Part shown: positions 10,664-39,164 of the stretch, one piece after another
Numbering within the stretch: position 1 is the stretch's first letter
How the letters are laid out: each line of letters starts with the position of its first letter
From: Octopus vulgaris
Taxonomy: Eukaryota
Length of the DNA: 64,000 nt
NCBI GenBank assembly: GCA_951406725.2
Contig: OX597814.1
Coordinates: 97,278,001-97,342,000 of the forward strand
Direction of reading: 5' to 3'
The notes under the pieces: model-generated
The model's input: the letters and a program-made list of their open reading frames with translations, nothing else
What the model was told of the DNA's origin: nothing
Database searches by the model: none
Program-made: the position numbers and the translations under genes

Positions 10664-10919
10664 CTCCACCATTCCTATGTACCAAATAAGGAAACCTCCA
10701 GATGTTTCCAAGACCAATCACATAGCCTAAGCATGAGAGCATGAAATCTAGTCGACGATTCCAGTATCCTCTCAGCTTATTTTCCTCTACTGTCATAGAC
10801 TCATTAGTGCTTTCATTGCTAGTGATGGAAATTGCATCTGCTAAATAACTACCACCTGACTGTGTTGCTCCAGCAATGGCAACAGCAGGTGATACACCAG
10901 CTGGTACATCGGACTGATC
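10664..10919 (-). CDS. SLC6 (Na+/Cl- dependent glycine/amino-acid-type) transporter exon encoding the N-terminal region and TM1 (256 nt, phase 0 to phase 1)
   Basis: Acceptor ttttttctttttcatttccag| and donor GGAG|gtttgt at the conserved NGG^G intron position. Translates [85 protein letters not shown](G). Gly rather than Asp before LGN argues against a monoamine transporter. Confidence 0.97.
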
Positions 10920-12373
10920 CTGGAAATGAAAAAGAAAAAAATTACTGTCATTATTCTTGTTATAACTAATGAGGTGACTGCAAAGGATAAAATCTATACA
11001 GAAAGATAGCAAAAGAGATGAGTGAAAATGAAAGGAATGAAATAAAGATGTAGATGGTTTGAACCGTAAATATCCAAGTGACATGTATTACAGTGTTTAG
11101 TTTTGTATTTCGTCTTTTAAAAGTTAATAAAATAAACAAGTAGAATTCTTGGGTATCTTGGTAAATGGTTCTCTGTAACAATTGGACTTGTTTCTAAATG
11201 AGACAATTGCATTTAGATGAGTTGGTAAGAGTATCATTCAAATGATTTAGGGCTCATGATTTGCATCCTATCAGTAGTACTGCACTGTGTCCATATTCAA
11301 AATACTGACTTTGTCCATTTAACTGTGAATAGACAATATAGTTAAGAAAATTTCAGATAGGTATGAGAGTTCTATAACCTCACATAACTGAGTTTAAAAG
11401 CTTCTGTACACATATCCTGAAAAGACATGTGATCTACTTTGCAAACCTTTTAATATACTATAGGATTAAATATTCAAGAGATGTTACTATCATCTAATAA
11501 GTGTTGTTCTTACAGTCTAAGACAAGGGCAGTACATTTGGTAAAAATATCTTATGATATTTTGATGTAATGCTGTTCTGAGTTCAAATTCTGTTAAGGTA
11601 GACAATGCATTCTATGGTTAATAAAGCAAGTACTTGATTTATTGAGCTTGATTCACTCAAATGCACTCTTCTGAGGTATCAAAAAAGAGTCACCAGTTTT
11701 AAGTCAGTACATTTAAAATTTATTCTTTATACAAAAATGAAAGTAAAATTGTGTCTGAATACCCTAGAAACCCTTCTATATCTTAAATTTTGAGAATATC
11801 TGTTTATATTTCTAAATCTTCTACCATACCATGACCAATTATGAAGTAATTTCTTATGGTAAACTTCGAAGGAAATTTGACTGTCATTTCTTGGAGGTGA
11901 AAGAATCATGCAGAAGCTTTTACAATTTCCCTATTAGCTTACAAATAGTGAATACAGTAGATAAATTAGTGATGAATATAATATGCTAAAAAAGAAGACA
12001 TCATGATCATGGTTTGAATGTTGATTGAATGATGGAACTTCAACACTTAGGTATGTTGAATGAAACTCTTATTATAATGCTATTCATGAGAAACCTTGTA
12101 AACATAACACAAATGAAGAAAGACTACAACAGTACTAATGACCTGAAAAAATGTTCATAGAAGCGGAAAAAAAAACTCCCCCAAAATAATAAAACAAACA
12201 AAACATATGTTAGCTTGTATGATGTTCCACATATTGCAACCCTCTCAAATTCCAAACTACAAATCAATAAGACTGGAGAGACCATTCACATAGGTGGTAT
12301 CATAACTATACATAATATATCTCAGCTACATCACCTTAAGACTCTCACAAATACCAATACAACACTGAAGATG

Positions 12374-12413
<40 letters not shown>

Positions 12414-12686
12414 AGATCCAAGGATTGAGGTGTAGAAAGAAAGCTTCAAGCAACCCGTAATAAATATAAAAACAACTTTCAGGGAAAATAGTTATTTATC
12501 GAAGCAGAAGGTTGAGGATTTTTCCATATCAAAGTATGATAAACCAAAAAAAGTTCTTTTTATATTTCACGGTAGGTGACCAGGGTTGCCAGGTATGCAA
12601 GTAAGAATACAAGAGTTGAGATAAGATTCCAGATCTTATTTACTCAATTCCTTAACTCTTGCATATATATATATATATATATATAC

Positions 12687-13135
12687 ATGCATTAAATACT
12701 ACAAAGCATTCATGTAGGACAGATACAGAAGGATCCTAATTCTTTATCAGCTATCGACCAAAATACTAATATTCAGTTTTGTGCCTTTAACGATAAGACT
12801 GAGAATTTCATATATTGGCAGCACCCACAAAATTTGAAGAGAATTAAGGCTTGAGCAAACAACAATACAGGGTGGATGTATGAAAGTAAACAAATGCAAT
12901 TTGAAATGGTAGACAAAGACAGAATAAATACAGCCTTTCGGCCAAATATGTGGGTGATGGATAACACGTAGAAGAAATCTTCAATGGATATAGAAAGAGA
13001 AATAGCAAGAGAGGATAAAACATTGACTGGCAAGCCAAGCATCTGGTGGCAAAAAAGCAGAGAGATGAGAAAATTAGTCACGGGTCACATGTGGGCAGTA
13101 GATAGAAGGGAAGAAGGATGAGAGAGAGAGGAAGA

Positions 13136-13166
<31 letters not shown>

Positions 13167-13790
13167 CAGAGAGAACTGAGAAGGAAGGAAGGAAGAAAGT
13201 CTACAGTTAAGAGTGAGAAGACAAGAGAGAGGGTGAGTGGAAGCTGGGATGCTAGAAAAGGATGAGAGAGAAAGAAAGAAGATAGAGTCGCAAAAAATAT
13301 ATAAAATCTTACTGTTAATGAAAGTCGGGATGTGTGGCATTCAGTTACTCAATAAATGAAAAATGCATTAAATACTACAAAGCATTCGTGTAGGACAGAC
13401 ACAGATGGACTCTAATTCTTCATCAGTTATTGACCAAAATACGAATACTCAGTTTTGTGCCTTTAATGATAGGCATTACCCATCACTCTTGTGTTTGGCC
13501 AAAAGGCTGTAGTAATTCCATCTTCATCTATCGTTTCAAATTACATTTGTTTACTTTTGTACATTCACCCTGTATTGTTTTGTTTGCTTGAGCCCTTATT
13601 CTCCTCAAATTTTGTGGGTGCTGCCGATATACAAAGTTCTCAGTTTTATTGTTAAAGGCACGAAACTGAGTATTAGTATTTTGGTTGATAACTGATGAAG
13701 AATTAGGGTCCCACTGTGTTTTGTCCTATGTGTATGTTTTGTAGTATTTAATGCACTTCTCATTTATTGAGTAATTGAATGCCATGCGGC
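12687..13790. repeat. Direct plus inverted repeat cluster, probable Penelope-like terminal-repeat remnant
   Basis: 12687-12962 is the imperfect reverse complement of 13479-13756. 13335-13470 is a partial direct copy. The cluster contains GAAAC...CTGATGA words. Confidence 0.6.
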
Positions 13791-13923
13791 CTCACACACA
13801 CACACACACACACATGTATGTATGTATGTATGTATGTATGTATGTATGTATATATATCTATATATAATATTATGTATAAATATATTATTATAATGTATAT
13901 TATGTAACTGTCTGTCGGTCTAC

Positions 13924-13975
<52 letters not shown>

Positions 13976-15067
13976 ATATATATATATATATGTATATGTA
14001 TATATAGTACCTATCGATAACAGTATCATTATCACCACTTTTTACTATAAGCAAATTTTCTTAGTAACCATTACAGTCTTCTGACCAAAATTTAGATGTC
14101 TAATAACTATACACCAATATTAATTTTGATATTATGAAAAGAAGCTAAAATTCCCTTTTAAATCAAACTGAATTCTTATTTCCTTAAAGGCAAAACAGAA
14201 TTGCATCACAACTCATTACTTATGTCATATCTCAGCCTCATTTAAGTTTTTAGATAAGAATGTGTATTAATCCACTCCTCCCTCATAAGCTCCTTACCTA
14301 ATTTACTGTCCTAAATTTATTTCTAACAATACTAACTGAAAGCTGTACATGAGATTAGACAAAACTGCTCTGAGGGGAAATACCGTATTAGTGAAAGATG
14401 CTTTTATGTTTGCACATGTTGTCTGTGTACATTTGTTTTAAAAGAAGACAATTCAAAAATTTAGAATTAAAATTCTTTATTTCTTTTTAAATAAAACAAT
14501 TTGAAAAAAAAATCTAGTTTGAAATTTTTTCCTTTATACCATCCTAAGGGTGTAGTTAATATTTAATAAGTCATCTCCATTAACCCATTCTAAAAATTAA
14601 CTCTTTGTAAACTGAAAAAGAATTAACACTTTCTCAACTGAAATCATAGTTATAGCTTGAAGGGTATTAATGCATTCTAAAATGGAGTCAAATATTTGAC
14701 TAAGTGGGTTATGTTTACATTACTTGTGGGTCATCTTAAAAATTAGGTTACTGATCAAGTACAATTCATAGTAATGCACTTTAGTTACTGCACTTTTATT
14801 TAGTTATGCATTTATTTATGCATTTGTGCATAAAACAAAGTAAAAACAAACACGATTCACTTTAAGATTGCTTATCTTGGAATCTAATACAAGGAGCAAG
14901 TTCAAAATGTCACCAGAAATGTTAATATTTGTTCGGAGTCATTATAATTCTGATTTCAAATCTCACTGTGATCAATTTTCTCTTTCATCCCTCTGGAGTC
15001 AATAAAATGAAGTTCTAGTCGAGTACTGGAGTTAATTTAATCAACTAGCACCCTCTCCCAGATTTGC

Positions 15068-15300
15068 AACGGTCAAAATCATCCCTTTTGTTATCGGTGC
15101 ACTCAGAACAGTCTCAAAGAATCTGAATGCAATACCTGAGATTTTGGGCATACCAGATATAGCAGGGAGCACACAGATGGCTGTGGTGCTTGAAATAGCT
15201 AATGTTCTGAGGAAGGTGTGTCTCTGAGCTGTGGGCAAGAGCTGAGGCATAATTATACACAACCTGATCATAAAAGATCTATGTGTTGGAGAACAATGAC
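15068..15300 (+). mobile_element. RLE-clade LINE extreme 3' fragment
   Basis: Reads VKIIPFVIGALRTVSKNL..LGIPDIAGSTQMAVVLEIANVLRKV, followed by an (ACA/ATA)n tail. Confidence 0.6.
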
Positions 15301-15614
15301 AACAATGATTAACAATAATGATGACAAAGACAACAACAACAACAACAACAATAATAATGACAACAATGACAATTCTTTCTTATTTTTGGTTTAAAGCCAG
15401 CAAATTTGAGGGCTTGGGAAGTCAGTTATATCGATCTCAAAAGGATCAAAAGGCAAAGTTGACCTCAACAGAATTTGAACTCAAAATGTTAAATCAGAAG
15501 AAATGCTACTAAGCGTATTGTATGACACAGTAATGATTTTACCAGCAATGATGATGATGATGATAACAATAATGATAATAACAACAACAAGAATAACAAC
15601 AATCTGGTTGAGAA

Positions 15615-16335
15615 ACACAAGTCTGAGCTCTGAAGATTCTTGAGTGCAGCACACAATCGAAGCCCCCTGCCAATAAGCCCATCAAATGAATATTATGAAG
15701 CAGAATATTAAGTAGCTGCAGAATATATGGAAACAAGAAAGAAACTATTAACCACATTGCTTCTGGCTGTCTAGTCAAAGCTAAGAAAGAATACATTCAT
15801 AGATGTGAAGAGTTAAAACTTATATACACTGGAAGTTATATCAGCATTATGAAACACCAGAAGATAAGAGGTGGTAGAGAGAAGTATGAGAAAGCAAACA
15901 TACTCTGGGATGTACCAATACACTCAGGTAGGAAGATCAAGTCTAATGGATCAGATATTGTTGTCAAAGATAACCACAAATAGAAATGCCCCCTAATCCC
16001 AACAAATATGTCTTGCAAGAAATGGGGAAATAATTCAAATATAAAGACCTGGAAATAAAAATAACTTAAATATGAAAGCTGAAAACAGAACAATAATTGG
16101 TGCTTTGGTAATAATAAAAGAAACATGCAAACAAATGCATAACCAAAATCCCAAAACTTACAAATATGCACAACATGTAGAAAAATAATACTACTAAGCA
16201 CTATGCATAATTATGTAGAGTACTTTCAATATGAAAGATGGATCAAAACCAACGCAAAATACTGCACCTACCTAAAGCACATAGAGCTGTGCTTGGTAGT
16301 GTAATGAAAGCATGCAATAAAAACAAGACTACTGA
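15615..16335 (+). mobile_element. Second degraded copy of the R4/Dong-like LINE 3' end
   Basis: Colinear with 2470-3173 (CRIYGNKKETINHIASGC; the 3' UTR gcacatagagctgtgcttggtagtgtaatgaaagc is shared). Ends in an (ACA)n tail. Confidence 0.8.
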
Positions 16336-16343
16336 ATGACAAT

Positions 16344-16379
<36 letters not shown>

Positions 16380-16807
16380 AATTCTTTCTACTATTAGCAG
16401 AAAGCATGAAATTTTGAAGGAGAGGAATAGTCAATTACATCGATCTCAGTGTTCAACAGATACTTATATCATTGACGCCAAAAGGATGAACGGCAAAGTC
16501 TACCTCAGCAGAATTCAAACTCAGAACTTAAAGACAGATGAAATGTGCTAATGATTCTGTCAGCTTGCTAACTTATCAATAAAAATGTTTTCTAATTTAT
16601 GCACAAGGCCAGCAATTTGGTGAGAAGGGAGTTAGTTGGTACCATCAACCTCAGTGCTTGACTGATATATTGCTATTTTATCAATATTAGAGATAGAATT
16701 TTATTTGAACCCAGTACGTGAATAACTGGAATGGATACCACAAGCTATTTTTTCCAACACTCTAATGATTCTCAAATATTAATATTTGCTGGTATTATTT
16801 AATATTA

Positions 16808-17020
16808 AAGGCAGTGAGCTGGAAGAATGGTTAGCATGCCAGACAGAATACTTCATAGCATTTCATCCATCTTTATGTTCTTGCTTCAAATTCTCTTGAG
16901 GCTGACTTTGCTTTTCATCCTTTACGGTTGATAAAATAGGTACATTTGAGCTCTGGGATTGATGTAATTGACTTACCCCATCCCTTGAAATTGCTGGCCT
17001 TGTGCCAAAATTTGAAATCA
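16808..17020 (+). mobile_element. Abundant short SINE family (copies at about 16380-16570, 42390-42590, 47345-47550, 47618-47820, 54825-55240 and 62368-63265)
   Basis: Shared head aaggcagtgagctggcagaat.gttagc and core gagttcaaattc.gccgaggt.gactttgcctttcatcctttc.gggt.gataaa...gtaccag. Confidence 0.8.
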
Positions 17021-17304
17021 GTATTTTTTATTATTTATCAAAAAGAGGTAGAGAAGAAAATTATAATTTTAAATATGATTTTTCCAAAATTATCAACATT
17101 TTACCATTCTAAGATAGGGAATTTTAAATTTTGAAGAAAGTATCAAAGTATATGTGAGTTTCACTATACCAAAAACTAAATTTCAACCGTCTAGAGAATG
17201 TAAGATGTAGGAATCCTTTCTACTGGAAGCACAAGGCCTCAAATTTGGGAGAAGAGATCAAGTTGATTACATCAACCCCAGTGAGTAACTGGTACTAATT
17301 TTAT

Positions 17305-17772
17305 TGACCAGGTCTTCTCAAGCACAGCATATCTCCAAAGGTCTTGGTCACTTGTGAAGCCCAACGTTCGAAGGTCGTGCTTTACCACCTCATCCCAGGT
17401 CTTCCTGGGTCTACCTCTTCCACAAGTTCCCTCTACTGCTAGGGTGTGACACTTTTTCACACAGCTGTCCTCATCCATATGCAACACATGACCATACCAG
17501 TGCAGTCATCTCTCTTGCACACCACATCTGATGCTTCTTATGTCCAACTATTTGCTCAGGGTACTTACACTCTATTGTGTATGCACACTGACATTACACA
17601 TCCAGCGGGTCATATTAGCTTCATTCTTTGCAAGCTTACACATATCCTCAGCAGTCATGGCCCATGTTTCACTGCCATGTAGCATTGCTGTTTGCACACA
17701 TGCATCATACAGTCTACCTTTTACTCTGAGTGAGAGGCCCTTTGTCACCAGCAGAAGTAGGAGCTCTCTGAA
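17305..17772 (-). mobile_element. RTE-like LINE 3' ORF fragment (same family as 56755-59706)
   Basis: ORFs read VKGRLYDACVQTAMLHGSETWAMT and MDEDSCVKKCHTLAVEGTCGRGRPRKTWDEVVKHDL. Confidence 0.9.
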
Positions 17773-18559
17773 CTTTTTTTTAAAATAATTAAAAAAAAAA
17801 TCATATATTATTATTTTAGGATGAAAGAAAAATGACATGCTGATGAATAACATCACCGAGTGTAAAACCACTGCAGCCAATAAAAATCTAGGAGTGTCTT
17901 AAAAAAATGAGAACATATTGGATAGTGGAGTTCAGGGTACATTACTCCTAGAAAAGAAAGGTTTGTCATCACTGGTATGCCATGATCAGCCTATCATATA
18001 ATCATATGTCTACTAAATAAAGGCTGACTTCAGTCAAAGCAATAACAAGCATATTGCAATTGAAGTTGAAAAAGAAATGGATTCAGAATGATACCAGAAA
18101 AATGAATGTTTCTATAGCAGTGAACCATCGGAAATTTATAAGAAAAGGATACTTGCTATGTGGAAACTATTGACAAGTTCTCAATCTAAGAACAATGATT
18201 AGTGGATCAAATATATTTAATTAAATGAAAAAAGTAATGATCTGGAGACTTCAGAAGGGAGTGTGATCAAATGCAAAAATTGCAGTTGGTAGTGAGGAGA
18301 AGGGAAATTATATTTATAATGTCTATAATGAGTTTGGTATTTGTTCCAGTCCAGTAAGGAAGACCCACAGTAGAGTATTTACTCAAGTCAAGTTGTAGGT
18401 ATGTGAAATTTTTTACGACTTTATTCAATGGAACAACCCAACTCCTGCATTGAACCACTTCTAACCATGTTAAATAGTTTTAGCCTTAAGATCATTGGAC
18501 ACAAGATTGTAAAAACATGCAGTGCTATAACAATATGAAAGTCGCAATGCCAACAACAA

Positions 18560-19690
18560 CAACAATAATAATAATGGGAAAATATACATTATGTAAGAAA
18601 GAAATACTACAATACCAAGGCAAGAGTGATAAAGGATAATGTGGAAGAAGAGAACACAACTAATGAAAAAAGATTAGAAATTTTAGAAGGCTTAATGATA
18701 TCAAAAGAAGAATATAAAGGGATTAGGAAACTTAAAGGAATAAGGAAGAATTACCAACCAAAATTAATTACCATCATTAAGAAGAAGAGAAAATGCAGAT
18801 AATCCTTGGAAGTAAGAAAATTTAATGACATCCTGAAAAAGACAAGTAAACATTACTAATACCAAAGTTCTGTTAAACAATGGATCTGCACTTGTCACAG
18901 ATATGTTTGGTGTTGAATTTAAGGAAGAAAAAACATAAGTAATAGAGCCAAGGTGGAAAAGGTAACTGAAGGACAAGTAAAAGATCTTAAAAAAAAAAGG
19001 ATCAGAGGCATCTTTCTCAATTTCTGAAAAGAGTATCAAAAAGGCTTATAGGAAATTACCTAGAGGGTAGATTAAAAGAATACAAAGAATGAAAACAAAA
19101 GAATATAAATAAATTAATTTCAACAATAGACAAAGCAGTGTAAATGAAACAGAATGAAGGCTTTGTTATCATAAATGCTTAACCAGTATTATTTTGATTT
19201 ATCCTTATCTGGCTCATTGTTTTTTTATTGTTTTTCTGTCCAGTTTAGATGCTGATAGAGTAACATGAAGGCAACATGAGTGGGGTCAAAAATGAACTGA
19301 AATCTGTAAGTAATGCACATTGAGGTGTATCCATGATACAGTGTTGATATACTGTTTATGCTGACAGAGGTGGGATACAGAAGGCTACTTCATACAGCAC
19401 TTTCCACTCATAAATTTAATAAAATACACAAGAAAAGGGAAGAGAACTTTATATGTGCAACTGATATAAAATATTTTGAAACAGAAAAGGGATTACAAAT
19501 AAAAGAAAAGGGAGAGGTTGACTCAATGAAAAGAAAATGTGTGGTATGTACAGTTTTACCTGACAAACTGGAGATCTAAAGAGAGAGTAACAGTAGGGTT
19601 GTCTAAAAGTCAAAAGATTAAAGAGGGGAAACTGATAGCCTGATCATGGTTGTACAAGAACAATGATTTGAATAAACTTGTTAAATCCTT
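18560..19690 (+). mobile_element. Highly degraded LINE fragments (probably R4/Dong-like)
   Basis: A-rich coding-like remnants after an (ACA/ATA)n tract, such as EPRWKR.LKDK and LKRGETDSLIMVVQEQ. Confidence 0.45.
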
Positions 19691-19699
19691 AGTTATATT

Positions 19700-21490
19700 G
19701 AGTAATAATATAGGAAAGTGTTAACTGAGACTATTCTTGTATTGCAGACATGCAACCAATACAAGAGGTATTTACAAGACCAAATTATTTGGATGAAGCA
19801 GGAACCTCTTGACATCAGGGAAAAAGATCATCAACACAAATGTGAAGTTTCATCTATTGGGTTGGCAACTAAGTTCCTGCCATTTTACAAAATTTTTGAA
19901 ATTATTGTGTTTTTAAATTTTGGAATCTATATTTTTTCAAGAATTCTATTTTTGAATCATTTTGGAATCTATTTTGTTTCTTTTCTAGTTAATTTTAGTT
20001 AGTTTTTGTTTATTTTCAGATCATTAAAATGGAATGTCAAGTTAGGAAAAACGAGTATTTCCGACTCCTCCTTCTTTTTGCTTTTAGTGAAGGTTCTAAG
20101 GCCGCAAGAATTGCTTGTGATTGGTATGCCAAGTTCAAAAAATGGAAATTTTGACCTCAAAGACGCACCTCATTCTGGCTGTCCAGTTGAGTTTGATGAA
20201 GAATGATTAAACCACCTTTTGCACAAAAATTCTCGTCAAACTGCTATAGAGAAGCATCTTCACTCAATGGGAAAGGTTCAGAAGTATGGAGCATGGGTTG
20301 TGCATGCTTTAAGTGACAACAACAAAAATCAACGAGATACAATCTCTGCTGGTTTGCTTGCTCGTCATTGCTCAACTCATGGACACAAGCAACGATTTCT
20401 TTACTGAATCATTACTGGTGATGAAAAATGGTGCCTGTACATCAATATGAAGCAGTGTAAGGAATGGCTTAGCCCCGGTAAACAAGTGACACTGCACATG
20501 AAACAAGTTCTTCATCCACGTAAAATGATGTGTGTATGGTGGAACTGGGAAGGGATTATCCATTACAAATTGCTTGAATGGAACCAAACGGTCAATGTGG
20601 AACTCATAAGATGGAACAACTCAACACGACTATTCAAGAGAAAATACCTAATCAGCAGCATGGAGTTCTTCTGCTGCATGAGAACGCCCGCCTTCATATC
20701 GCCAATATGACCAAGGAAGACATTCAAATGCATGGCTGGGAAGTGCTGCCACACCCACCATACTCTCCTGATTTGGTACCAATGGATTTCCACCTGTTTT
20801 GATCTCTTTCAAATGCTATGTGCGGAGTTTTGTTCAATACCAATACAGAATTGAGAGCTTGGTTGGATTAATTTTCCGAGTTAAAATCAGGTAATATCTA
20901 CCAACGAGGTATTGAAAATCTTGTTGAACATTGGGAAGAAGTTGTAAACAACAAGGGTGAAAATATTATTGATTAATTAGTTGTTAATTTTTATTAAACC
21001 TTTTAAAAAATTAAAATTTTAAAAAAATGGCAGGAACTCAGTTGCCAACACAATACATAACTCCATCATCTTGCCTACTGCAGTCTATGACCGTGAGATT
21101 TGAAAAAGCAGAGTAAAGATGGATAGAAAACTAAATATATTCCATCAAAGGTACCTCAGAAAGATCCTGAAGGTAAACTGGTGAGACCATGTCATAAATG
21201 AGGAGATTCTAGGAAGAACAAGGTCATGATCACTGCAAGAGATTGTAGCAGAGCAACAATTTAATCTAGCCAATCAATGGCACTCAGAAACAGCTATGAC
21301 TTAGATATCACCTGACAGCAGGCAAAAAGGGGTAGGCAGAAGGTCACTTGGATGCAGACATTTCGAGATGACCTGGAGACAGTCAACATTATGTAGAATG
21401 TGGGTGCAAGAGCAACAGCTGACTGAACCTAGTGAAGGAAGTTTGCCCCCCACCTCAATGCACTGAGCAATGCAGGAGGACCTAAAGCTA
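19700..21490 (+). mobile_element. RTE-like LINE 3' remnant split by a mariner insertion
   Basis: Joining the flanks restores TNVKFHL|HNSIILPTAVY, which continues into RKLNIFHQRYLRKILKVNW.DHVINEEILGR. Confidence 0.7.
19857..21053 (+). mobile_element. Near full-length, inactivated mariner transposon
   Basis: TIRs ttgggttggcaactaagttcctgccatttt / aaaatggcaggaactcagttgccaacacaa with TA on both sides. The broken transposase contains WVVHAL, TGDEKW, HENARLH and PPYSPDLVPMDFHLF. Confidence 0.95.
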
Positions 21491-21567
21491 AACTATCAGA
21501 AAGATCATAATCTGTACAAAGGGTGTGAAAAAAAGATACAAGAATCACTAACTATAGAAGATGTAGA

Positions 21568-21815
21568 GGTACATGGCTTAGTGATTAGGATGTTGGACTC
21601 ATGATCACAAGATTGTGGTTTCAATTCCTGGACTGGTTGATGTGTTGTGTTCTTGAACAAAATACTACATTTCACGTTGTTCCAGTTCACTCAGCTAGCA
21701 AAAATGAGTTATCCTGCAATGGACCAGTGTCCCATCCAGGTGGGGAGTATATATGCCATGAAACCGGGAAACCAGCCCTTATGAATCAGTCTGACTTGAG
21801 AAGGTAAATTTACTT
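21568..21815 (+). mobile_element. tRNA-derived SINE (related copies at about 32895-33160 plus, 60720-60930 minus and 62120-62345 minus)
   Basis: A box TGGCTTAGTG and B-box-like GGTTTCAATTCC. The body gtgttcttga.caa.a.act..atttcac.ttg.tccagt.cactcagct is shared with the SINE at 3502. Confidence 0.8.
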
Positions 21816-25207: not shown

Positions 25208-25256
25208 TACATATATATATATACATATGTATATATATATATATATACATATATAC

Positions 25257-25314
<58 letters not shown>

Positions 25315-25320
25315 ATGTAC

Positions 25321-25351
<31 letters not shown>

Positions 25352-25355
25352 TAGA

Positions 25356-26206: not shown

Positions 26207-26231
26207 TATATGTATATATATATATAGATAG

Positions 26232-26269
<38 letters not shown>

Positions 26270-26310
26270 GATAGATAATATATATATATATATATATATA
26301 GATAGATAAT

Positions 26311-26580: not shown

Positions 26581-26648
26581 ATTTATATTGTGAAATTTGA
26601 TTGAATACTAAATTGAATTTTTCCCTGTAAGTTTGGAGTTATACTCCC

Positions 26649-26720
<72 letters not shown>

Positions 26721-29700
26721 GAGAGAGAGAGAGATAGATAGATAGATAGACAGACAGATAGATAGACAATGTTAAACTCATTTAATATTTTTATATAACG
26801 TGTGTAGATATTAAATGACTTTAGCATATTAAATTATCTCTCTCCATTAGTGTCCACTATCCACCTGGGTATGTATCAGACAGAATTTGTTGAGAGCATA
26901 TATTTCTATGGTTGGATGCCCTTCATGTTGCCAACCCTCACTTAAGTAAAATAATACTTCCTATTGAACAGGTATGTTTCCACTGAAGACTGGAAATGAA
27001 GAGCACTGCGAGCATAATGGTGACACTCATTTACAACTACTGTGCAATGTGTAAGCACAGAGACAGTAACACACACACACACACACTGTACCAGAATTTT
27101 AAACTTAAGTCAAATATAACAAACTACTCTAAATTGTTAGAGTACATTTTTGAAATACTTTAACTGAGGAAGGTTTACATAATGGATGCATTTCTTATAT
27201 ATTATGCAAACCTGAAACCTACATGTTAAATGATTTCATAATATCAATATTTGGTTTGATTTCATTATCATAACTACACACACACTCACACATGATGTGT
27301 TTCTTTCAGTTTCTGCCTACAAATCCACTCACAAGGTATTTGATCCCTTTTTATCTATAACAGAAGATACTCACCTATGGTACCATGTCTGGAACACTTT
27401 TGCGTTATTACCTATTATAGTTGTTTACAAAAGCAAATAAAAATTTAAAGGCTAATGTTCTTGTAGACCCATACAAACATAAACAGAAGCTAAATATATT
27501 TCATCACTGTGCTATTTCTGTTTTGGTTTTATATTTTACTCATGAACTCGAGTGATATGTTATTTTTGGTACTGAAACATAATGAACAGTTAATGAGCTA
27601 TCATTCTCATAGAAAATGTAATATTGTTAGAGTGACTTAAACTCTTCATTACACATCAGTTATCTTCAGTAATAGATGTAACCTATACCACCAAATTATA
27701 GCTATGCACCTACACCTGGCAAAACCATTTGGTTTTCATGTATAATATACACCTATAATTTTTAGGCTTAAAAATCCAGAAAAAGAAGAAGTGTATATTA
27801 TACACAAATAAATATATTATGCAATCTCCCTTGATTATTAATGATACATAGTTTCCCATTGGTAACGTAAATAGACAATTACATAAGAAAATGATTTATT
27901 GGTATATTATTGATGTAGCATCCATTTTCCAGGTTCTGTGTTACTAAAGCTTCCACATCAACCATTCTTCCATCCAACCTGGCCTAACATTTTTGTCACT
28001 GATGTTTAGCCTTGGATCAATCATGAATGAGTAAATTTGTGATCAAAAGCACTCAATCTGTGACAATCCTAATATTTTTAACATCTAAGACTACCTTGTC
28101 CAGTATATCTTTCCATATAACATATGTGATTTGAAAGATTTAGGCTACATTTTTCTAGTAGGTTTACCAATTACACAGAGGCTTCCTTATATGTTTGTGT
28201 TTTAAATTTTGCTAGAAATATAAATCTATCAAAGCTCGTACATAGTTAAAATATGTTTCTCCTGTTCAAATATCAAAAGTAACAACAGCTGTTATATATT
28301 AATGTTTTAACATTAACAAGGAAGCACTGAATCATATAAATAGAAAACTATAAAAATATTGTACATAGTTTTAAATAACTTTCTAAGCCTATTTCCAGTA
28401 ACATCCGATGTCAATTACACATCAATCACACAGAAAAGATTGCATGAAAAAGGTTTGAGTTCCATATCAGAGACATACAATACTTTAGTCTGTATTCTTA
28501 ACAAAGTGACAACATGCATGAGGCCAAAATATTTTTTCGTTAAGTAAGAGTAAACATCTACTATATGCAAATGACAAATCAAAATGAAGATAAATTATCC
28601 AGCTGTTAGGCAAGCTTTCTTTATCTGACATTTTATAACCACTGAGGTGTAGTGAATATCTGTCATCTTTATGGTTCTCTGCGATACATAGTAGTACACC
28701 CTGCCCTTCTGATATTTCTTTGTACAGTTGTCTTGCAAACTTATTTCATCTGTCGCTCATCTCTCATATTCACATTGTGCTAGCTTCCCTGTCTGATTCT
28801 TTTCCCCAGAACTGTAATCATCTAGAATTCATCTCTACAATGAAGGATGTTGTCTATTGTTTTGGTCTATTAATATGGAGACAAATTGTGAGAATGTTAT
28901 TTGACATTTTGGGAAGAATTTTGATATAGAGAATGTTTATTAAACTACCTAGACAAATATTTCATGCAGTGATATTGCTGTTTCCAATTATTATTATATA
29001 GCATAGAGTGTGTACAAGATTCTAAGCTGTGAAGTAAGTGTAACACAATATAATTAATATATTATAAATCTATAGAAGTTTTTGTAGTATCTTCTGATAT
29101 AATATACATAGTTTCTAGAATACTAATGGCCTTAAAAAGAACAATTAAGTCACAAGTAATTCTAGATTGATCCCTAATGTTAGTTACTAACCGATGCTTA
29201 GGAACTACTGACATACATTCAACAACAAATGTATGCTTAAAAATAATTAACATTTGAAAGATCCTTTATATTCAACAAATGAACAACTAAATCTAAAAGA
29301 GAAATAATAAAAACTGAATTAATGAGTGCAAACTTCTGAGAGACATAATACAATAAAGTCTATGTTTTTTCAAATGAAGTAAAAACAAAGAAAAAAAGAT
29401 AAGCATTTACTGTTATTAAACGAGATTTCAAAATAAGAAACATAATTTTGTAAAAGGAATTTGAAGTTACCTGAAGACTGAGTGAATGAAAATGAACCGA
29501 TTTCATGTTTTGTACATCTTAAGACTGAGAACATTAAACCCATATGACTAAGAAAGTAACTTAATAAACTATACTTGAGTGCAGACTGAGTGTACTGTGT
29601 AAAGTGTGTCAATAGTAAAGGTATGTTTACTTTCATCTAAAAAGTTAATACCGTGAGAAATATATAAAATAAATCACAATTAAATGATGACACACTGAAT

Positions 29701-30827
29701 GTATGTTGAGTATAGAATAAAATGTAACACTTGAGTTATTGTTTAATACGGTTAAGAAGCTTTACAATTTGATTTGGTGGTGGGTTGACAAAATTATTAA
29801 AGCTTTGGACAAGATACCTTGCAGTATTAGGTCCGACTGTTTATGTCATGAGTTCAAATCCCACTAAAGTTAACTCTGTCTTTCAAACTTTCGAGGGCAT
29901 TGAAATAAAATATCACCCCAGGTTAGAAGGATGGTGGAATTGTTAAAGGACTGGACAAAATGTCATGTGGTATTTGTTCTGTCTCTTTACTTTGTAAGTT
30001 TTTTAATAGCAATGGTACCAAACTGTATTGGTTCTTGCTTTCACTTAGTGAACATCAATAGCACAGAGAGAAGAGACTTGCTATATGGGTAAGAGTTATT
30101 CTTTAAAAAAAGCCTATCCTGCCCAAGCCTGTGCTCTGAAAGGGCAGTTCTCAAAAGCTAATACATGATCAAGCCTGATGAATGAATGCCTAAGACAATT
30201 TGTTTCATGCTCCTTTGATCTTAAATATATAGACATATTCTGTTAATTCCTATCCTGTCATAATGCCTATACAAAGTATACACTCTAATAAACACATTCT
30301 TGTGAATACTAACACATATTCATCTCTCTATTAAGGTCTCTGTTTATCTGTCTGCCTATCTCTCCCTCACTCTCCCCACTCACTTTTTCACACAAAAGTA
30401 TAAGTTAACATCTATACAATTATACTGCTAAGATATAATCTTGGTAGTGTCATCAAGATCAAACATAAAAACATATATTTAGCTACACATGCATTGCATC
30501 ACAATTGCACCTAAGCAAACAAATCTTTTCTTTTACTTGTTTTGATCATTGAACTGTAGCCTTGGACTTTTTAGTCAAACAATTTGCCTGCAGTGCTTAT
30601 GTTTTTTTTAAAGTCTTATTCTTATTCTATCATCCTCTCTTGCTGAATTACTAAGTCATGAGGATGTAAAGAAATGAACACAAGCTGTCAGGCATTGACT
30701 GAGGGAAATAAACACACACACACACATATAAATACATATGTACATACATACATACATAAATACATACATATATACATAAAAAATACATACATACATACAT
30801 ACATACATACATACATACATACATACA

Positions 30828-30861
<34 letters not shown>

Positions 30862-30867
30862 CATACA

Positions 30868-31043
30868 TATATTAAGAAAAAGAAGGTAGTCAGGATTTGG
30901 ATAAAAACTATTTATTTAGCACTTTTGTCCCTTTCAAGGATTTATCATGAATAAACCCATTCATGATGAATTCCTGATAGGGATGAAAAGGCTAAATAAA
31001 TAGCTTTTATTCAAATCCTGGCTATTCTCTTTTCCTTAATATA
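30868..31043. repeat. Imperfect palindrome with a hammerhead-like core
   Basis: Arms ttaagaaaaagaag..caggatttggataaaaactatttatttagc / gctaaataaatagcttttattcaaatcctg..cttttccttaa. The right arm contains TGATGA-ATTCCT-gat-AGGGAT-GAAA. Confidence 0.7.
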
Positions 31044-31114
31044 TAAAATCTGTACACCACTTCACACAATCTATACATATATACACATACATACATATAT
31101 ATATATACAGCACT

Positions 31115-31477
31115 GTTGGAACATTGGGCCTCACAGAGGCAAAGTGGCTGAGTTCCTTTCAAGTATTAGGCCTCACAGAGACAATGACTGAGACTTTTGG
31201 CATTATGTTGTGCTTGAGAAGAAGACCCATCAAGCCAAGCAAAATCACAGACATGACAGATACCAATGTCATGCAAATGGCACCAGTGCCGGTGACACAT
31301 AGAAGCACCCATTATACTTTCAGAGTGGTTGGTGTTAGGAAGGGCATCCAGCCATAGAAAACCATGTCAAATCAGACTGGAATCTGGTGCAACCTTCCAG
31401 CTAACTAGCCCTGGTCAAACCATACAACCCATACTAGAATGGACAATGGACGTTAAATGATGACGATGATGATGATA
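31115..31477 (+). mobile_element. 3' tail of the RTE-like LINE or its partner SINE, ending in (GAT)n (copies at about 37350-37680, 40345-40617, 42868-43308 and 22975-23130 minus)
   Basis: Shared cactacactctcggagtggttggc.ttaggaagggcatccagct...ggacgttaaatgatgatgat, matching the 3' UTR at 59225-59706. Confidence 0.85.
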
Positions 31478-31481
31478 TATA

Positions 31482-31957
31482 CAGGATGTGGTGAATAAAC
31501 TGCTGTTTAAATTATGCAAAAATGAAAATGACACTAGCATTTCATTTTAACAGATATATTAGCCAAAATTAGATAAAAAATCTGGAAATACTAAAGAGTA
31601 AATTTATTCAATAAAATCGCCATTGGCTTCAATCATGGCCTTCAGACAACTTCAGCATCTTCTGCAACTGTTCTGGATGGTCTCCTTGTTTAAGTTGGTG
31701 AATGGTGCCATAATTCTTGCCTTCAGTTCATCTTTGGTGTTACAAGGAGTTTTATTGGTCTCTAGCTCAACTGTGACCCATACATAATAATCAAAGGGGT
31801 TGCAGTCTGGAGAGTTAGGTGGCCAGATGTTAGGGGTGATATGGTCGCAGAAGTTGTCTGACAGCCATGACTGGGTTTTCCTGCTTGTGTGGCATGGTGC
31901 AGAGTCCTGTTGCTAGACATAGGGTGTTCCAGTAGCCACCCTCTTGACCCAGGGCAG
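31482..31957 (-). mobile_element. Truncated second copy of the maT-like element
   Basis: Colinear and highly similar to 25356-25832; starts with the TIR caggatgtggtgaataaactg after TA. Confidence 0.9.
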
Positions 31958-32509
31958 ATTTTGTAACTTCCATGATTTCCTTATAATTTTCAATAAACTA
32001 AGGACATTGGAATATCATTACAAATATTAATCATTGCACAAAGCTACATACCTGATAAGCAGTAAGATTTTTTAGCAATACTTTTATACTGATATAAAAC
32101 ATTTATCCACAATATAAAAGCATATTAAACATGATTTCATTTTTGATTTTCTCCTGAACACAAAGTAATAAAAAATTTTCTAAAGATCAATATGAAAGCC
32201 TATGCCTGTAATAAATAAAACTGGATTCATTTCATTCATGTTCATAGGTCACTAATTATTTAGTTCAAAGCTTTAATATCTTTGATTTGTAATATTTAGG
32301 TCAATGTAAAGTACAGTTCTATGAATCAAGATTTATTATTCAGTTTTCTATACATTCATACAAATCATTTCATAATTATATTATGCACTGTTAAAATAAA
32401 GTCTATATCTTACCTCCATAATAAAAATTAAAAATGTACCAATGTAAGAAATAATTGATATAGGTGCCATTTTAGTGTGCAGTCTATTTGATCATTTACA
32501 CTTGCCATC

Positions 32510-32695
32510 TAACCTAACCCTAACCCTAACCCTAAGGCTAACCCTAAACCCCAACCCTGATCCTAATCCTAAACTTAACTAATCTTAACCCCTAACCCTA
32601 ACTCAAAACTTAACTTTAACCTTAAACATAAAACCTAACCCCAAACTCAAAACCAAATCTTGACTCAAACCTAACCCTAACCTTAATCCTAACTT
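32510..32695. repeat. Degenerate (TAACCC)n telomere-like tract
   Basis: ctaacctaaccctaaccctaaccctaaggctaaccctaaacccc... read directly. A shorter decayed version lies at about 61730-61780. Confidence 0.8.
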
Positions 32696-34104
32696 AGATC
32701 AGGTAATTTCACAGTCTAGACTAGGGATACTGCAGTAGCCTACACACTAAAGTAGTACCCTGATCTTATACATCACAACATTATCATAATGTTGATCAGG
32801 ACCAATATACATTATATGACTGAAGACCTACTTTCTTTATATATAAAGAATTAAATGAAGCCATAAAAATTTCAGTTAGTAATAATATCAGTGGAAGTGC
32901 ATGGCTTAGTGGTAAATGTGTTGGACTTGTGATTGTAAGATTGTGGTTTTGATTCCTGGACAGAGCAATGCATTGTGTTCTTGAGCAAAACACTTCATTT
33001 CATGTTGCTCCTGTCCACTCAGTTGGCAAAAATGAGTAATACTGTTGCCATGGACTGCTGTCCCATCCACATGGGGAATATATATGCCAAGGAAATTGGG
33101 ATGCAGCCCTTATGATGCTGGTCCTTATGTATGATTCAGGAAGGATCTTTATGTTCTTTTTTAGAATAATACAGAAACTTATAAATGTACCAAAGCTAGA
33201 GATTAAACTTGGAGTCTTTTGCTTAATGCTCTCTCAGCTGAGCTGTTTTGATTCTTAGCAAAAGGCTTCATTATTTGTAGTAATAAATATTTGCTGTTAT
33301 TAAAATGGGAAAATTTTGTTAATGTATACCAAGTAAAACATGTTAAACAACAGATTAAGAAAAAATTTCATTCTAAATTAAAAATTAATTAAAAATTAAT
33401 ATAATTATATTAATTCAAAATATATGTGTCTTCATATGTTAAATATATTAACCAATTAAGAAAAAGAACTCATTCCTAATTAAAAATCATTTCAAATTAT
33501 AATTGATTTGTGTTTTTATACAATTTCACAATTTTATTTTATATCTTAGATTCTTTTAAAATATATAAAAAGTCTTTCAAATTTTCCCAAGGAAATGTTA
33601 TAGAAAATTGCACAAATCCCTTTTTGTGTATGTGTTGGCTAAATACATACATACATACATACATACATACATACATACATACATACATACATAATACATA
33701 CATACATACATACATACATACATACATACATACATACATTACATACATACATGCATGCACATGTACACACATACATACATACAAACATACATACATGCAT
33801 ACATGCATGCATGCATACAAGTTAACAGGTAAGGAATATTGATGTAAATGACCTGCCTATCTCCTCTTTCACTAGTGGTGAATGTTACAAATATCTTGGA
33901 ACTGACAAGAATATTACACATGTTCATGCAATGAGTAAAGCTAGAGTATCATAAATTATTTCAATAGACTTCAGAAGGTATGGAAGTCAGAGTTGTCTGC
34001 ATTTAATAATACTATATCCCACAATACTTTTGTTGTGTCAGTGCAAGTACTGACATTTAGGATAGTAGACTGGACACTTGAAGAGATCTGCAACATTGGC
34101 ATCA

Positions 34105-34561
34105 TTAATTATAAGACAAAAGAGATCATTACACTTGTGTAGAGAGGTATTAGGCAACAAGAGGTTATCACATTCAACCCCAGTGCTGAAGTCATCCAAT
34201 CAAAGAATTTTCTTCTTCTGTGATTATATACATGAAGGGTCAAATAACAGGGAACAAACACTCTTTGTTAGTTATGCAGCTGATTGTCATATGTACTGAT
34301 AATTACAGTAAGTCTATTCCAATATTAACGATCAACAAAACTGGATGATATTCTTTTCTCACTTATTTGAAATATTGCTCCATATAGTAGATTAGTACCA
34401 AAGATGCATTATGTTTCAGCCACTCTGCTTATCTTGAAAGAGTGTGGCTATTTTTTTTATTTTCTATTTTTATTTGTGTAATAGTTTATTTCTTTCTTTA
34501 TTTTTTTATTTCAATAGTATCTAGAAATCTTAAGTCTCTCAAGTCAGCTACACCAATACAG

Positions 34562-34603
<42 letters not shown>

Positions 34604-34674
34604 TACACACACACAGATGTATAGAGAGAGATGGAGTGAGTACGAACCTGCTATAAAGAGATAGAGAAGGTAGG
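34105..34674. repeat. About 570-bp direct repeat, copy 1
   Basis: Nearly identical to 36588-37144 (ttaattataagacaaaagagatcattacacttgtg...gagatagagaaggtagg). Confidence 0.95.
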
Positions 34675-34849
34675 AAGATATTAGCAATGACTGATAATTT
34701 CACATTAGTAGTGATATTGATAGGATCTGTGTTAAACAGAAGAACAGAGGTGGAGGAATAAAGTAATTCCAGACAACCTTTGAGAACTGCATTTTATCAC
34801 TTAGACAATATCTACTGAAGAGCAAAAAGGGAAATGAGTACATAACATG

Positions 34850-35830
34850 TATACTCAACAGTTAAGGCAATAACATGAGATTAAGCAGTGAACTTCTGAA
34901 CAAATATTCTGAGTTTATTGTTGCTCCATATGAACCCAGGGTGGCTGGACTGACCTATTTATAGAGAGGGTACATACACTACAAGATGAGAATACCAACA
35001 ACATTGACAGGACTAGCCTCTCCTGGACCTGTGATAAGTACATCATATTTCACCCAGAAGACTGTGATTTTGCTATCCAAGAACAGGAGATAGTTATTAA
35101 ATAACTGACTAACAAAAGAGATAAGGATGCCACTAAACTTCCATGCTGGGGTAGAAAGTGTAGATTGTGCCATACCAGTGTGAAAGATATTTAGATCATC
35201 AGTAGCTTTCCAAACATGTCTGCAAGGTATTGCCTTTCCATGAGGAAACATTGTCAATAAGTCAATCTTCAATACTAAATACAAGAAGGATTGTCAATAC
35301 CAAAGTCATACCAGAACCAGAAAGTATACACACCTTTCAAAATGAAGAATACTGGTGGAACATTCCAATAAAAACAGCTTCCTGGTGTGAACACAGCAGG
35401 CCAGACATAGTTGTATGGGGCAATGAGCACTTGTCTCAGCAATTGCCTAGATGTGAATGTCTCTTCAAAAATTGGGGGGACAATTGAATATTTATGGAAA
35501 AAACGATGAGAAACTTACAGTTCTTACATTCAGGCTATGCATTTTCATTTGTTCCTATCATCATAGGTGCATCAAGTTACATAACAACAGACCTGCACAG
35601 AAATCTAGAAATGTTGGGTTCTCAAAAGAACAGAGTAGACTGGTTCACATTCTCTGGATACAATCATTCAGAGGAACAGTGAAAACTTCTAAAACATTTC
35701 TGGGATTCTTCGTTAGAGGTATCTTATTTGTGGGTTTTTGGTCCAAAGCTATCTGTATGCTCTTTGTACATAATCAAGAGTTCCTTACTACCAACAAACC
35801 AGTATAGAAACTTCAAGTTGCAATGCATAA
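34850..35830 (+). mobile_element. Degraded RLE-clade LINE C-terminal fragment
   Basis: Reads QNEEYWWNIPIKTASWCEHSRPDIVVW (RPD endonuclease motif) and FSFVPIIIGA. Confidence 0.7.
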
Positions 35831-35905
35831 AATTGACCTTTGTTAATATTCAGTGCACTCTCAACTATATTTTGGATATGCACTTTATATTTTCTGGAAA
35901 TATTC

Positions 35906-35951
<46 letters not shown>

Positions 35952-36330
35952 TGGAAAAAACAATAACTCTGAGCATATTTTCAAACTCCATCTGTCTAAC
36001 ACCCGTGGACATGTTTACAAAGTCAGAAAACAGCACAGCTCCCATGACTTTCAGAAACATTTTTTCACACTAAGAGTTGCTGAAGCATGGAACAAACTGC
36101 CAGCATCAGTTGTTAGTTGTTGGAGCACTGCATCCTTCAAAACTTCTGTGCTTCCTGAGATTCACCAACACTACACCTGATTTTCTCCCCTCCATACAGA
36201 TGCAAGCATGTATCTGACTCATACACTGTTCACTTTCCAGACATTTCTACATTACTGTATATGCTTTATACGCACTTTTGACAAGTTGTGGTGCACCTGA
36301 GCACTGTATACAATAATTTCATCATTATTA
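35952..36330 (+). mobile_element. CR1/L2-like LINE 3' end
   Basis: Reads TRGHVYKVRKQHSSHDFQKHFFTLRVAEAWNKLPASVV..ASFK, typical of CR1-group C-termini. It has a (TTA)n-like tail and follows a (TA)n tract. Confidence 0.85.
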
Positions 36331-36587
36331 TTTTTTTTTTTTTTATTAAATCAGGATCTGCAAGTCTGTACTGATTGGTCTTTAGCTTCAACAGTATCAA
36401 ATAATCATGCAGTAATTTCCTTTGTTGCACACTAGCTCATTATTGTACTAGCAATAGTTATATAACTTGGTGTGAGAATGAATCATATCTCAGCAATTCC
36501 AGATTCATATTATGATATAGTCTTTTTTATAGCTGGATCTTATTTTTAGAAAGGCTTTATATTCTCCTAAGGTCATAGGTTAACTAC

Positions 36588-37144
36588 TTAATTATAAGAC
36601 AAAAGAGATCATTACACTTGTGCAGAGAAATATTAGGCAACAAGAGGTTATCACATTCAACCCCAGTGCTGAAGTCATCCAATCAAAGAATTTTCTTCTT
36701 CTGTGATTATATACATGAAGGGTCAAATAACAGGGAACAAACACTCTTTGTTAGTTATGCAGCTGATTGTCATATGTACTGATAATTACAGTAAGTCTAT
36801 TCCAATATTAACGATCAACAAAACTGGATGATATTCTTTTCTCACTTCTTTGAAATATTGCTCCATATAGTAGATTAGTACCAAAGATGCATTATGTTTC
36901 AGCCACTCTGCTTATCTTGAAAGAGTGTGGCTATTTTTTTAATTTTCTATTTTTATTTGTGTAATACTTTATTTATTTATTTATTTATTATTTCAATAGT
37001 ATCTAGAAACCTCAAGTCTCTCAAGTCAGCTACACCAATACAGAAGTCTCTCTCTCTCTCTCTCTCTTTCACACACACACACACAGATGTATAGAGAGAG
37101 ATGGAGTGAGTATGAACCTGCTATAAAGAGATAGAGAAGGTAGG
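36588..37144. repeat. About 560-bp direct repeat, copy 2
   Basis: Near-identical to 34105-34674, with scattered substitutions and microsatellite length differences. Confidence 0.95.
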
Positions 37145-38951
37145 GCGATGTAGTTATATAAAGCTAAAGATTAAAGCAGATAGAAGTATGTATGTATGTG
37201 TGTATGTATGTATGTATGTATGTATGTATAAATTTAATTATGCCAAGGACCTATAATCCTTTAAGGGATGTTTGCATCCTAGTTCTCTAGTTTTTACCGG
37301 TGTCCAGTGCAAAACTAAATACATTAGTCTTGCATTGATGGATATGACTAGCACCCATGTCTGTAGCACATAAAAAGCACCATTCGAGCGTAACCAATGC
37401 CAGTGTTACCTGATTGGCACCCATGCCAGTGGCATGTGAAAAGCACCATTGGAGTGTGGTTGATGCCAGTAACGTCTGGCTGGCACCTGTGCCGGTGGCT
37501 CGTAAAAAGCATCCACTACACTCTCAGAGTGATTGGCATTAGGAAGGGCATCCAGCTACAGAAAGCTTGCCAAATCAGACTGAAGCCTGGTGCAGCCTCC
37601 TGGCTTGCCAGTCCTCAGTCAAAATGTCCAACCCATACCAGCATGGTAAGTGGACGTTAAACAACTATGATGATGATAATGAATACCATTCTTACCATGA
37701 AGTAGGACTGGAGCCTATATTTTTGTGCAATTAAACAAACTGTAGGAAGCAGCCATTACTTCAAATTTGAACTAATGTCTCCCAGAGAGTGTATGTGTGC
37801 CTATTAACAGAGAAGGGAAATCATTTTGGAGGACCATGTTGGTCCTCTGAAATTCTTTGCTATTAGGATCACAGGGTCTCAGGTTCTGAAATCAGACTAA
37901 TGATTCATTCATAACTTTGTATTATGCAATAATATAAATTTGAAAATAAATTATTCCACACCACTTAAGTAATAAATAAACTCTTAAGTTAGTTAATTCT
38001 CTATTAGAATACAAATATTTTAATTCAGAATTGTTTAGTCATGTTCTATAACAAATATAAGATTAAAATTTCCAAGTGGATGCAAAAAGACCCAACAAAA
38101 GGCAACAATGCAGAGTTAAGTGGATTTCACCAGTTTTAAAGTAGTCCATGTTACATCCTCTCTTTTTAGGTTTTATACTAACTATAGCTGAAAAGCAAGT
38201 TATAAAAAAGAAAAAAATAGATATAGTAAAAGAAATATGAATTTTATTTTTATCTTTTAGTCAAGAATAAAGGCACTGCTCATGACCTTTCACGGGCAGG
38301 AAGAAGGGAAGAAGATATCCTCAAATCAGAAACCTGGTCTAAATGCTTGCCCAAGATACAAAGAGCCATAACAAATACTAGAAGGCATTTGGCTTGACAC
38401 TCTTACAGTCCTGCCAATCTATCACCTTAAATTGGTACTTTTTTATCAACCCCCAAAAGGATGAAAAGCAAAGTTAATTTTGACAGGATTTGAATTTAGA
38501 ACAGAGGGAGTTAGAACAAATACCATGAAGTGTCTGGGTCAATACTTCAATGATTTTGCGAATTTGCTGCCCAATATGGAATAAGTATAGAGATGAATAA
38601 AACAGAAAAAAAAATGAGAAAATGTGAAGGTGGGGAATAGGAAATTTGGAGGACATAATGAAATAGAAGAGGTATAATAAAACAGCTGTTTTTGAGCAAT
38701 ATTTTTTCAAACAATCTTGTAAAATATATAAATAGTCTATTGATTTAATAAAGTTATATTTTGTACATGGCTTAATCAAGTATTTGGGTATTTACTCTTT
38801 GGTCTCTTTATACCACTGTTTTCCTTTCTATTATATCTTATGGCATGTAACCTATTGTTCTGCACATAAACTTTTCATAAAAATATTACTTAATTCTTTT
38901 TAACCATTAAATTTTTTCTTAAAGATAAAAAGTACATTTTATTCCTCAGCT

Positions 38952-39164
38952 TTAACTGATATCAAAAACTGAACTTACCATAGTAACCATTCTTCCAATA
39001 TCAGGAAAGTATAGATTAGCTGTAAGAATTGCAAGAGCATTAGCAGGGCGCCTGTTATTTTCTTCTTGAATTACATATTCGGAGCATTGTTCGTTTTGGA
39101 GTTCTTCATCAGACAGAAGACCAGGGCCCCAATCAGGAGGTGTTTCTATAAGTTTTTTGAAGTG
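38952..39164 (-). CDS. SLC6-type C-terminal-tail exon; ends either at the TAA at 38952-38954 or at an internal phase-0 donor after 38979
   Basis: Acceptor tctatcttttatgcag|. Translates HFKKLIETPPDWGPGLLSDEELQNEQCSEYVIQEENNRRPANALAILTANLYFPDIGRMVTM|VSSVFDIS*. The PxDWGP motif about 10 residues after a phase-0 acceptor matches the post-TM12 tail of glycine-transporter-like SLC6 proteins. Internal donor ATG|GTAAGT. Confidence 0.8.
   Translation of the reverse strand, partial: HFKKLIETPPDWGPGLLSDEELQNEQCSEYVIQEENNRRPANALAILTANLYFPDIGRMVTMVSSVFDIS

Follow-up and report, generated by a model that had tools for sequence, protein, structure and literature searches.

The question raised by this locus is whether two complete SLC6 transporter units can be encoded in one polypeptide chain. 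SLC6 transporters are described as single chains of 12 transmembrane segments (TM), which form oligomers without an agreed function (PMC8247324). The stretch analyzed comprises 64,000 nucleotides of Octopus vulgaris DNA (assembly GCA_951406725.2, contig OX597814.1, forward-strand positions 97,278,001 to 97,342,000; in the following "the window", numbered from its first letter). On its minus strand an exon for the tail behind TM12 of one SLC6 unit can be joined in frame to the TM1 exon of a second one, and a first-pass annotation of the letters alone had proposed a covalent SLC6 dimer of about 24 TM. We found that the fused transcript and its open reading frame (ORF) exist. According to the reading we favor, which we regard as likely but well short of certain, one gene encodes two complete SLC6 units in one ORF with a predicted 24 TM, the downstream unit (D) likely being a working Na+-coupled amino-acid transporter and the upstream unit (U) likely a pseudo-transporter that moves no substrate itself and instead regulates D.

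Both exons of the junction have the features described for them initially. The linker exon (38979..39164, minus strand) comprises 62 codons, contains the post-TM12 tail of U with the motif PPDWGP (PxDWGP in general form) as well as a conserved linker motif, and corresponds to residues 637–698 of the protein P0126; it ends in phase 0 at the donor ATG|GTAAGT, and read-through past this donor meets a stop at 38954–38952. Exon 1 of D (10664..10919, minus strand) begins in phase 0 behind a canonical acceptor, reaches its first Met at codon 42 and encodes the remainder of the linker followed by RGYW and TM1 with an intact GLGN...R motif. Between them lies a GT-AG intron of 28,059 nt (10920..38978, minus strand). 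Spliced contigs joining the two exons were found in four of five runs (X1, X11, X13 and X18) belonging to four study codes. In the region 10450–11550 the X11 and X13 contigs cover the exon alone and then continue into the end of the linker exon, their loose end having a unique match at 38980–39005. In the region 38450–39420 the contigs of X11, X1 and X18 run on into the start of the 10919 exon. The X11 contig of 6164 nt contains the linker exon at 2403–2591 and the TM1 exon at 2590–2847, and the X1 contig measures 6205 nt; both are long enough for all of U and the core of D, as judged by length, 30 letters past each exon being visible. The linker exon is spliced to the TM12 exon of U ending at 69013 in X11, X1 and X2, so that both of its sides are spliced in X11 and X1 and its upstream side in X2. 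Transcripts ending past the 38952 stop had been named as an observation that would speak against a fusion; cover at 38516–38977 was zero in four of four runs. The X2 linker-exon contig ends at 39046 and informs neither on the junction nor on read-through. The runs are not recorded as RNA, and we took them as transcript-derived because they show spliced joints and empty introns; their RNA status is a guess.

As suggested by the first-pass annotation, the search was extended past the window end. A tblastn search over 264 kb around the window revealed the second SLC6 unit upstream of D. The exons for TM1–TM12 of U are located from 105019 to 69013 in window coordinates, which is 5–41 kb beyond the window end; a first exon is found 125 kb beyond that end, at 189260. 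The exons of D extend from 10919 to about −20170, past the window start, followed by a tail of about 800 amino acids. Inside the window they include those for TM2 (7827..7958, spliced to 10664 in four of four runs), TM3 (6159..6302) and extracellular loop 2 (1643..1844), all on the minus strand, with the remaining ones below the window start. The long protein has about 2,120–2,180 amino acids in the order U (mostly outside the window), linker, D and long tail. P0126, labelled Octopus vulgaris, tiles the genome over canonical splice sites at 1362 of its first 1364 residues, to which the figure applies, its last exons falling outside the DNA compared. It contains two SNF stretches in one ORF: the SNF domain of D is complete (residues 748–1306, equal to positions 1–522 of 524 of the PF00209 profile), and U is the second stretch with 12 predicted TM. 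A hydropathy count gives 20 peaks, ten per unit; the figure of 24 TM rests on homology and models. The eukaryotic norm of a single 12-TM unit per chain is thus broken by the long isoform and kept by the D-only protein P0124. U and D are 30% identical and 9 of the 10 intron positions of D are common to U, a pattern consistent with the duplication of a single gene, even though part of these positions may date from earlier in the family. At 10779 one A-to-G difference (plus strand) is seen in the contig of X18 (depth 3.4), which is probably allelic or an error.

The 28-kb intron had been thought to be free of any other convincing first coding exon. This did not hold: run X2 shows an exon at 29471..29602 (minus strand; ATG at 29506, 12 codons, donor CAG|GTAACT) spliced to 10919, and P0124 (D-only, 1491 amino acids) begins with it. 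The 5' end given for this exon is a contig end and not a mapped start site. An ATG exon of its own for 10919 within 11–38 kb had been listed among the findings that would refute the fusion; as the fusion is still seen, this exon defines an additional isoform. A probable alternative first exon at 41900..42090 (minus strand; ATG at 41953, 18 codons, phase 0) is joined to the linker exon in one X18 contig of depth 4.2, and probably gives rise to an isoform consisting of linker and D. The same layout is found in the oyster-like Logan proteins P0040 and P0317. By means of these internal first exons D can be made together with U, alone, or probably with the linker only. Within the tail of D a cassette exon at about −25998 to −26168 (residues 1366–1422 of P0128) is included in P0128 and P0124 but missing in P0126. 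The C-terminal tail of P0124 and P0126, below the window start, includes a block kept across molluscs (AILNHAYSNPQC, then a TQT motif of the kind that binds LC8, a dynein light chain), and its acidic-hydrophobic end is conserved as well; octopus additionally has SPEHN-type repeats.

The arrangement is not confined to octopus. Using residues 1–720 of P0003 as query against proteins of 761–2422 amino acids we obtained 416 matches, of which 120 were listed; 52 of these, picked by eye for length and taxon, were cut together with P0126 into 93 units (53 proteins). Scanning for two-SNF ORFs, as had been proposed, yielded the layout U–linker–D in 23 mollusc proteins of the 53 selected, covering four classes. 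U plus D were found in octopus, a cuttlefish-like source, chiton, abalone, periwinkle, pulmonates, scallops, oysters, mussels and clams. Every U unit falls into one clade and every D unit into a second, and both clades broadly track the mollusc groups, with FastTree supports of 1.0 for U and 0.995 for D (units of the 53 proteins) and ultrafast bootstrap (UFBoot) values of 100 and 100 (32 units). These parallel clades point to a fusion ancestral in molluscs whose shared origin predates the split of the mollusc classes, over 500 million years ago. Mean patristic distances are 2.11 for U versus 1.11 for D, so U evolves about twice as fast. The cuttlefish-like source is represented by eight listed Logan proteins of 2029 amino acids on contigs of 6.4–7.8 kb, and a clam-like two-unit Logan protein of 1555 amino acids lies on a 6.1-kb contig; we took these contigs as intron-free because they are too short for introns.

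Conservation of the linker was likewise confirmed. The linker exon is 82% identical to the cuttlefish-like protein versus 66% for the U core, and mostly 35–50% identical in non-cephalopod molluscs versus 24–33% for the U core, with the exceptions of chiton (21%) and of one model from which the exon is missing. Near-invariant motifs occur across 26 mollusc rows, and the length from the WGP motif to RGxW is 87–107 amino acids in the rows where it was measurable. The donor of the tail exon, which the simpler alternative had put down to chance, is accordingly that of a conserved linker exon. When a U profile was compared with 1.84 billion representatives, three mollusc tandems ranked far above all else, and no full-length stand-alone U was seen among the best 150 matches. 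Of 145 newly listed matches 108 are canonical single units; eight matches were read by eye, including five of the 37 others, and the sole U-type single among these eight is a partial Lottia model.

Two-unit models also exist outside molluscs. Both units of an Owenia protein are intact, and in FastTree they join U and D with weak support (0.64 and 0.58), but IQ-TREE placed its first unit apart from U; these trees do not establish a fusion older than molluscs. Besides Owenia, 16 other two-unit proteins (from frogs, insects, hamster, tick and others) fall outside the U and D clades with units that are largely intact, and are probably merged gene models. Intact two-unit models recur in two frogs, in Owenia (three models) and in several butterflies (P0030, P0032; P0006; P0059, P0060, P0068); those of the two frogs are ATB0,+-like, the first unit grouping with the first and the second with the second. 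Such recurrent models could stem from the merging of gene models or from fusions that arose independently.

To assess the function of the two units we compared the residues of the transport site, numbered according to human GlyT2 (Xenopus P0100 plus 8). In PMC13022235, R216 and D633 are assigned to the gate, Y233, Q473, S477, N509 and S513 to the Cl− site, D577 and T578 to the Na2 site, N213 to Na1 and W482 to the pocket. In D the residues G210, G212, N213, R216, Y233, Q473, S513 and D633 are present in 23/23 proteins and Y287, F476 and S477 in 22/23. D is 47% identical to Xenopus GlyT2, and among PDB sequences GlyT2 is the best match (1e-173), followed by PROT and GlyT1. Octopus D has W482, S479 and T578 as in GlyT2 but serine at 577, and the trees give no firm orthology to GlyT2. 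Judging by its sequence, D probably works as a transporter that couples small neutral amino acids to Na+, with GlyT2, PROT and GlyT1 as nearest solved relatives.

The picture for U is different. The gate arginine R216 is found in 0/23 proteins (lysine in 11), N213 in 5/23 and G212 in 6/23, one U model being without TM1; Q473 and F476 are each present in 4/23, S513 in 1/23, D633 in 9/23 and Y287 in 10/23. The Cl− site across molluscs reads Y233 in 23, Q473 in 4, S477 in 17, N509 in 10 and S513 in 1 of the 23. Octopus U has N, S, S and H at 210, 212, 213 and 216, which leaves neither the Na1/substrate motif of TM1 nor the gate arginine. The substrate-site columns vary among orthologues, with eight different residues each at 212, 287 and 476, and near-invariant positions number 48 in U, mostly structural, versus 140 in D. 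In the AlphaFold2 prediction (predicted local distance difference test score, pLDDT, 70; predicted template-modeling score, pTM, 0.75) U keeps the LeuT fold, and the best Foldseek match of this model is GlyT2 (9hue; TM-score 0.80). Taken together, U is quite probably not a canonical transporter. The covalent double SLC6 proposed initially is hence upheld by the junction contigs, by two SNF stretches in one ORF and by the two-unit mollusc orthologues; of the idea of a dimer the fusion stands and the equality of the halves falls, as U is degenerate at ion, substrate and gate sites.

We propose that in the mollusc stem a tandem duplication of an ancestral GlyT/PROT-like gene would have been followed by fusion of the copies tail to head, after which U may have given up ion-coupled gating while keeping its fold. 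The cytoplasmic linker of about 110 amino acids would tether U to D in a 1:1 ratio, U possibly packing on D as a fixed partner and tuning its surface delivery or turnover. The choice of the first exon (long, linker and D, or D-only) might then switch regulation by U on or off by tissue. We are rather confident that the two-unit protein stays uncleaved, and consider an action of U on D in cis somewhat favored. The more specific idea of an asymmetric SLC6 heterodimer encoded in one gene and kept since before the mollusc classes split, in which U would regulate the transporting half allosterically or by sensing solutes and would be switched in or out by alternative first exons, is tentative, and we would rate it slightly below even chances.

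Several observations weigh against the reading of D as transporter and U as its pseudo-transporter partner. D itself departs from GlyT2, with aspartate in place of N509 in 23/23, serine in place of D577 in 19/23 and W482 in only 6/23, and in three pulmonate snails D is eroded too; in view of these departures and this erosion, we infer rather than observe the activity and the substrate of D. In the pulmonate proteins (P0050, P0055, P0058) D also evolves rapidly, and W215 has been lost along with the Na2 hydroxyl or acid at 577. The sister relation of U and D is supported by only 67% UFBoot. The contigs are assemblies and not single molecules, from runs whose RNA status is guessed. In an AlphaFold2 model of an oyster-like protein of linker and D the linker has a pLDDT below 50 and no docking is seen, which is weak evidence either way. 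U, finally, retains Y233 in 23/23; octopus U has D633 and most of the Cl− site (Y233, Q473, S477, N509 and T at 513), and the unwound TM6 of U carries a conserved G-T-G of its own (T at 482 in 22/23), which together with the retained residues could be a re-purposed active site.

This last point is the basis for the alternative that survives best, namely that both halves transport, U being a re-purposed carrier for another substrate, uncoupled or differently coupled, and the long form a two-substrate transporter. The preserved fold, the G-T-G in TM6, the retention of Y233 and S/T477 and, in octopus, Q473, N509 and D633 agree with it, but the gate arginine is replaced throughout (lysine in 11), U accumulates changes at about twice the rate of D, and substrate-site columns that vary freely among orthologues are unlike an active site under selection; we consider this explanation unlikely. 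Marginally less likely still is a transceptor-like ligand sensor, which would bind a solute outside the cell without moving it and signal to D or to cytoplasmic partners via the linker. The better conservation of the linker exon relative to the U core, its near-invariant motifs and a TM6 conserved in its own way would suit a sensor, whereas pocket residues poorly conserved among U orthologues and a linker unordered in the model would not. We think it improbable that the long ORF yields a polyprotein which is cleaved within the linker, or that U is a chaperone for folding or export from the endoplasmic reticulum which is later released: a linker largely disordered in the model with conserved short motifs would permit it, and D can fold alone because a D-only isoform exists, but no cleavage signal was identified and the conserved length of the linker suits a tether just as well. 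That the locus holds two separate paralogues in tandem, with a donor present by chance or read-through occurring rarely and with fused models produced by annotation merging, is largely refuted and very improbable, since the D-only transcript in X2, an AATAAA 9 nt past the 38952 stop, the O. bimaculoides model P0131, which ends U on a different exon, and the apparently common merging of tandem SLC6 paralogues in databases are outweighed by a junction in four study codes without cover past the donor, an AATAAA frequency of 1.6 per kb across the 28-kb intron, the fusion in four classes with parallel clades and intron-free contigs, and a U profile that retrieved one partial U-type single and no full-length one.

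Among known proteins D resembles the SLC6 amino-acid branch I (GlyT2 SLC6A5, PROT SLC6A7, GlyT1 SLC6A9 and ATB0,+ SLC6A14) in that its TM1 motif, its gate pair and its Cl− site are intact and, in cephalopods, Trp stands at 482. Unlike these single 12-TM chains, the octopus gene adds a fused front unit and the long tail, and D carries N509D and D577S. As in the non-covalent oligomers of SERT, DAT and GAT1, two SLC6 protomers would be kept together in the membrane; these are, however, homo-oligomers of variable stoichiometry, whereas the octopus tandem is genetically fixed, 1:1 and asymmetric, with a degenerate half that is optional by first exon. C. elegans SNF-10 and SNF-12 and Drosophila bedraggled are atypical, possibly non-transporting stand-alone single SLC6 units, and in the JAK kinases a dead pseudokinase copy is located N-terminal to the live kinase, which it regulates. 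U likewise keeps the family fold with catalytic residues lost; unlike the atypical SLC6 proteins it sits fused to a second unit. The tandem would represent a phylum-wide natural 1:1 pair in which one half is degenerate and is included in some natural isoforms but not in others, which makes the question of SLC6 oligomer function directly testable. If the heterodimer reading is true, it would offer a natural fixed-stoichiometry model of what SLC6 dimerization does.

The fused ORF and the D-only form are already contained in automated annotation (LOC115211848 in O. sinensis, CAI9715611-13 in O. vulgaris, and other mollusc orthologues) under the names "uncharacterized" or "dopamine transporter-like". 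The dopamine or monoamine label is not supported: the mark of monoamine transporters, which we take to be a TM1 Asp at the position of GlyT2 G210, is replaced by Gly in D in 23/23 and found in U in 0/23, and both units fall outside the clade with the TM1 Asp. In O. bimaculoides the annotation splits the gene into two loci inside D, the first half being named "dopamine transporter" (P0127, P0129, P0029, P0147). Such labels and the O. bimaculoides split could mislead cephalopod marker studies, for which the annotation is corrected here. In the open full-text literature, with subscription journals outside the scope, no description of a natural tandem SLC6 protein or of a degenerate half was found; the gene is not mentioned in the accessible part of PMC9815951, and LOC115211848 is absent from the searchable part of the supplements of PMC9712504. 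This is a conserved, real feature of a known family whose sequence is already in databases and whose two-unit layout is apparently undescribed.

Some further observations concern the surroundings of the exons. The genome holding the window measures 2.8 Gb, and an ab initio exon scan recovered few true exons of the locus. Besides the D-only first exon, the 28-kb intron holds transposon remnants: a broken mariner-type transposase is located at 20207–20800 on the plus strand (PF01359, E 2.9e-10), and a frame at 25605–26111 on the minus strand looks transposase-like by eye, with no Pfam match. In the intron above the linker exon a broken reverse transcriptase remnant resembling a long interspersed nuclear element (LINE) lies at 57235–58700 on the plus strand (RVT_1, E 7.5e-5, under the curated cut-off). 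A candidate piece similar in appearance to it is present at 17275–17900 on the minus strand.

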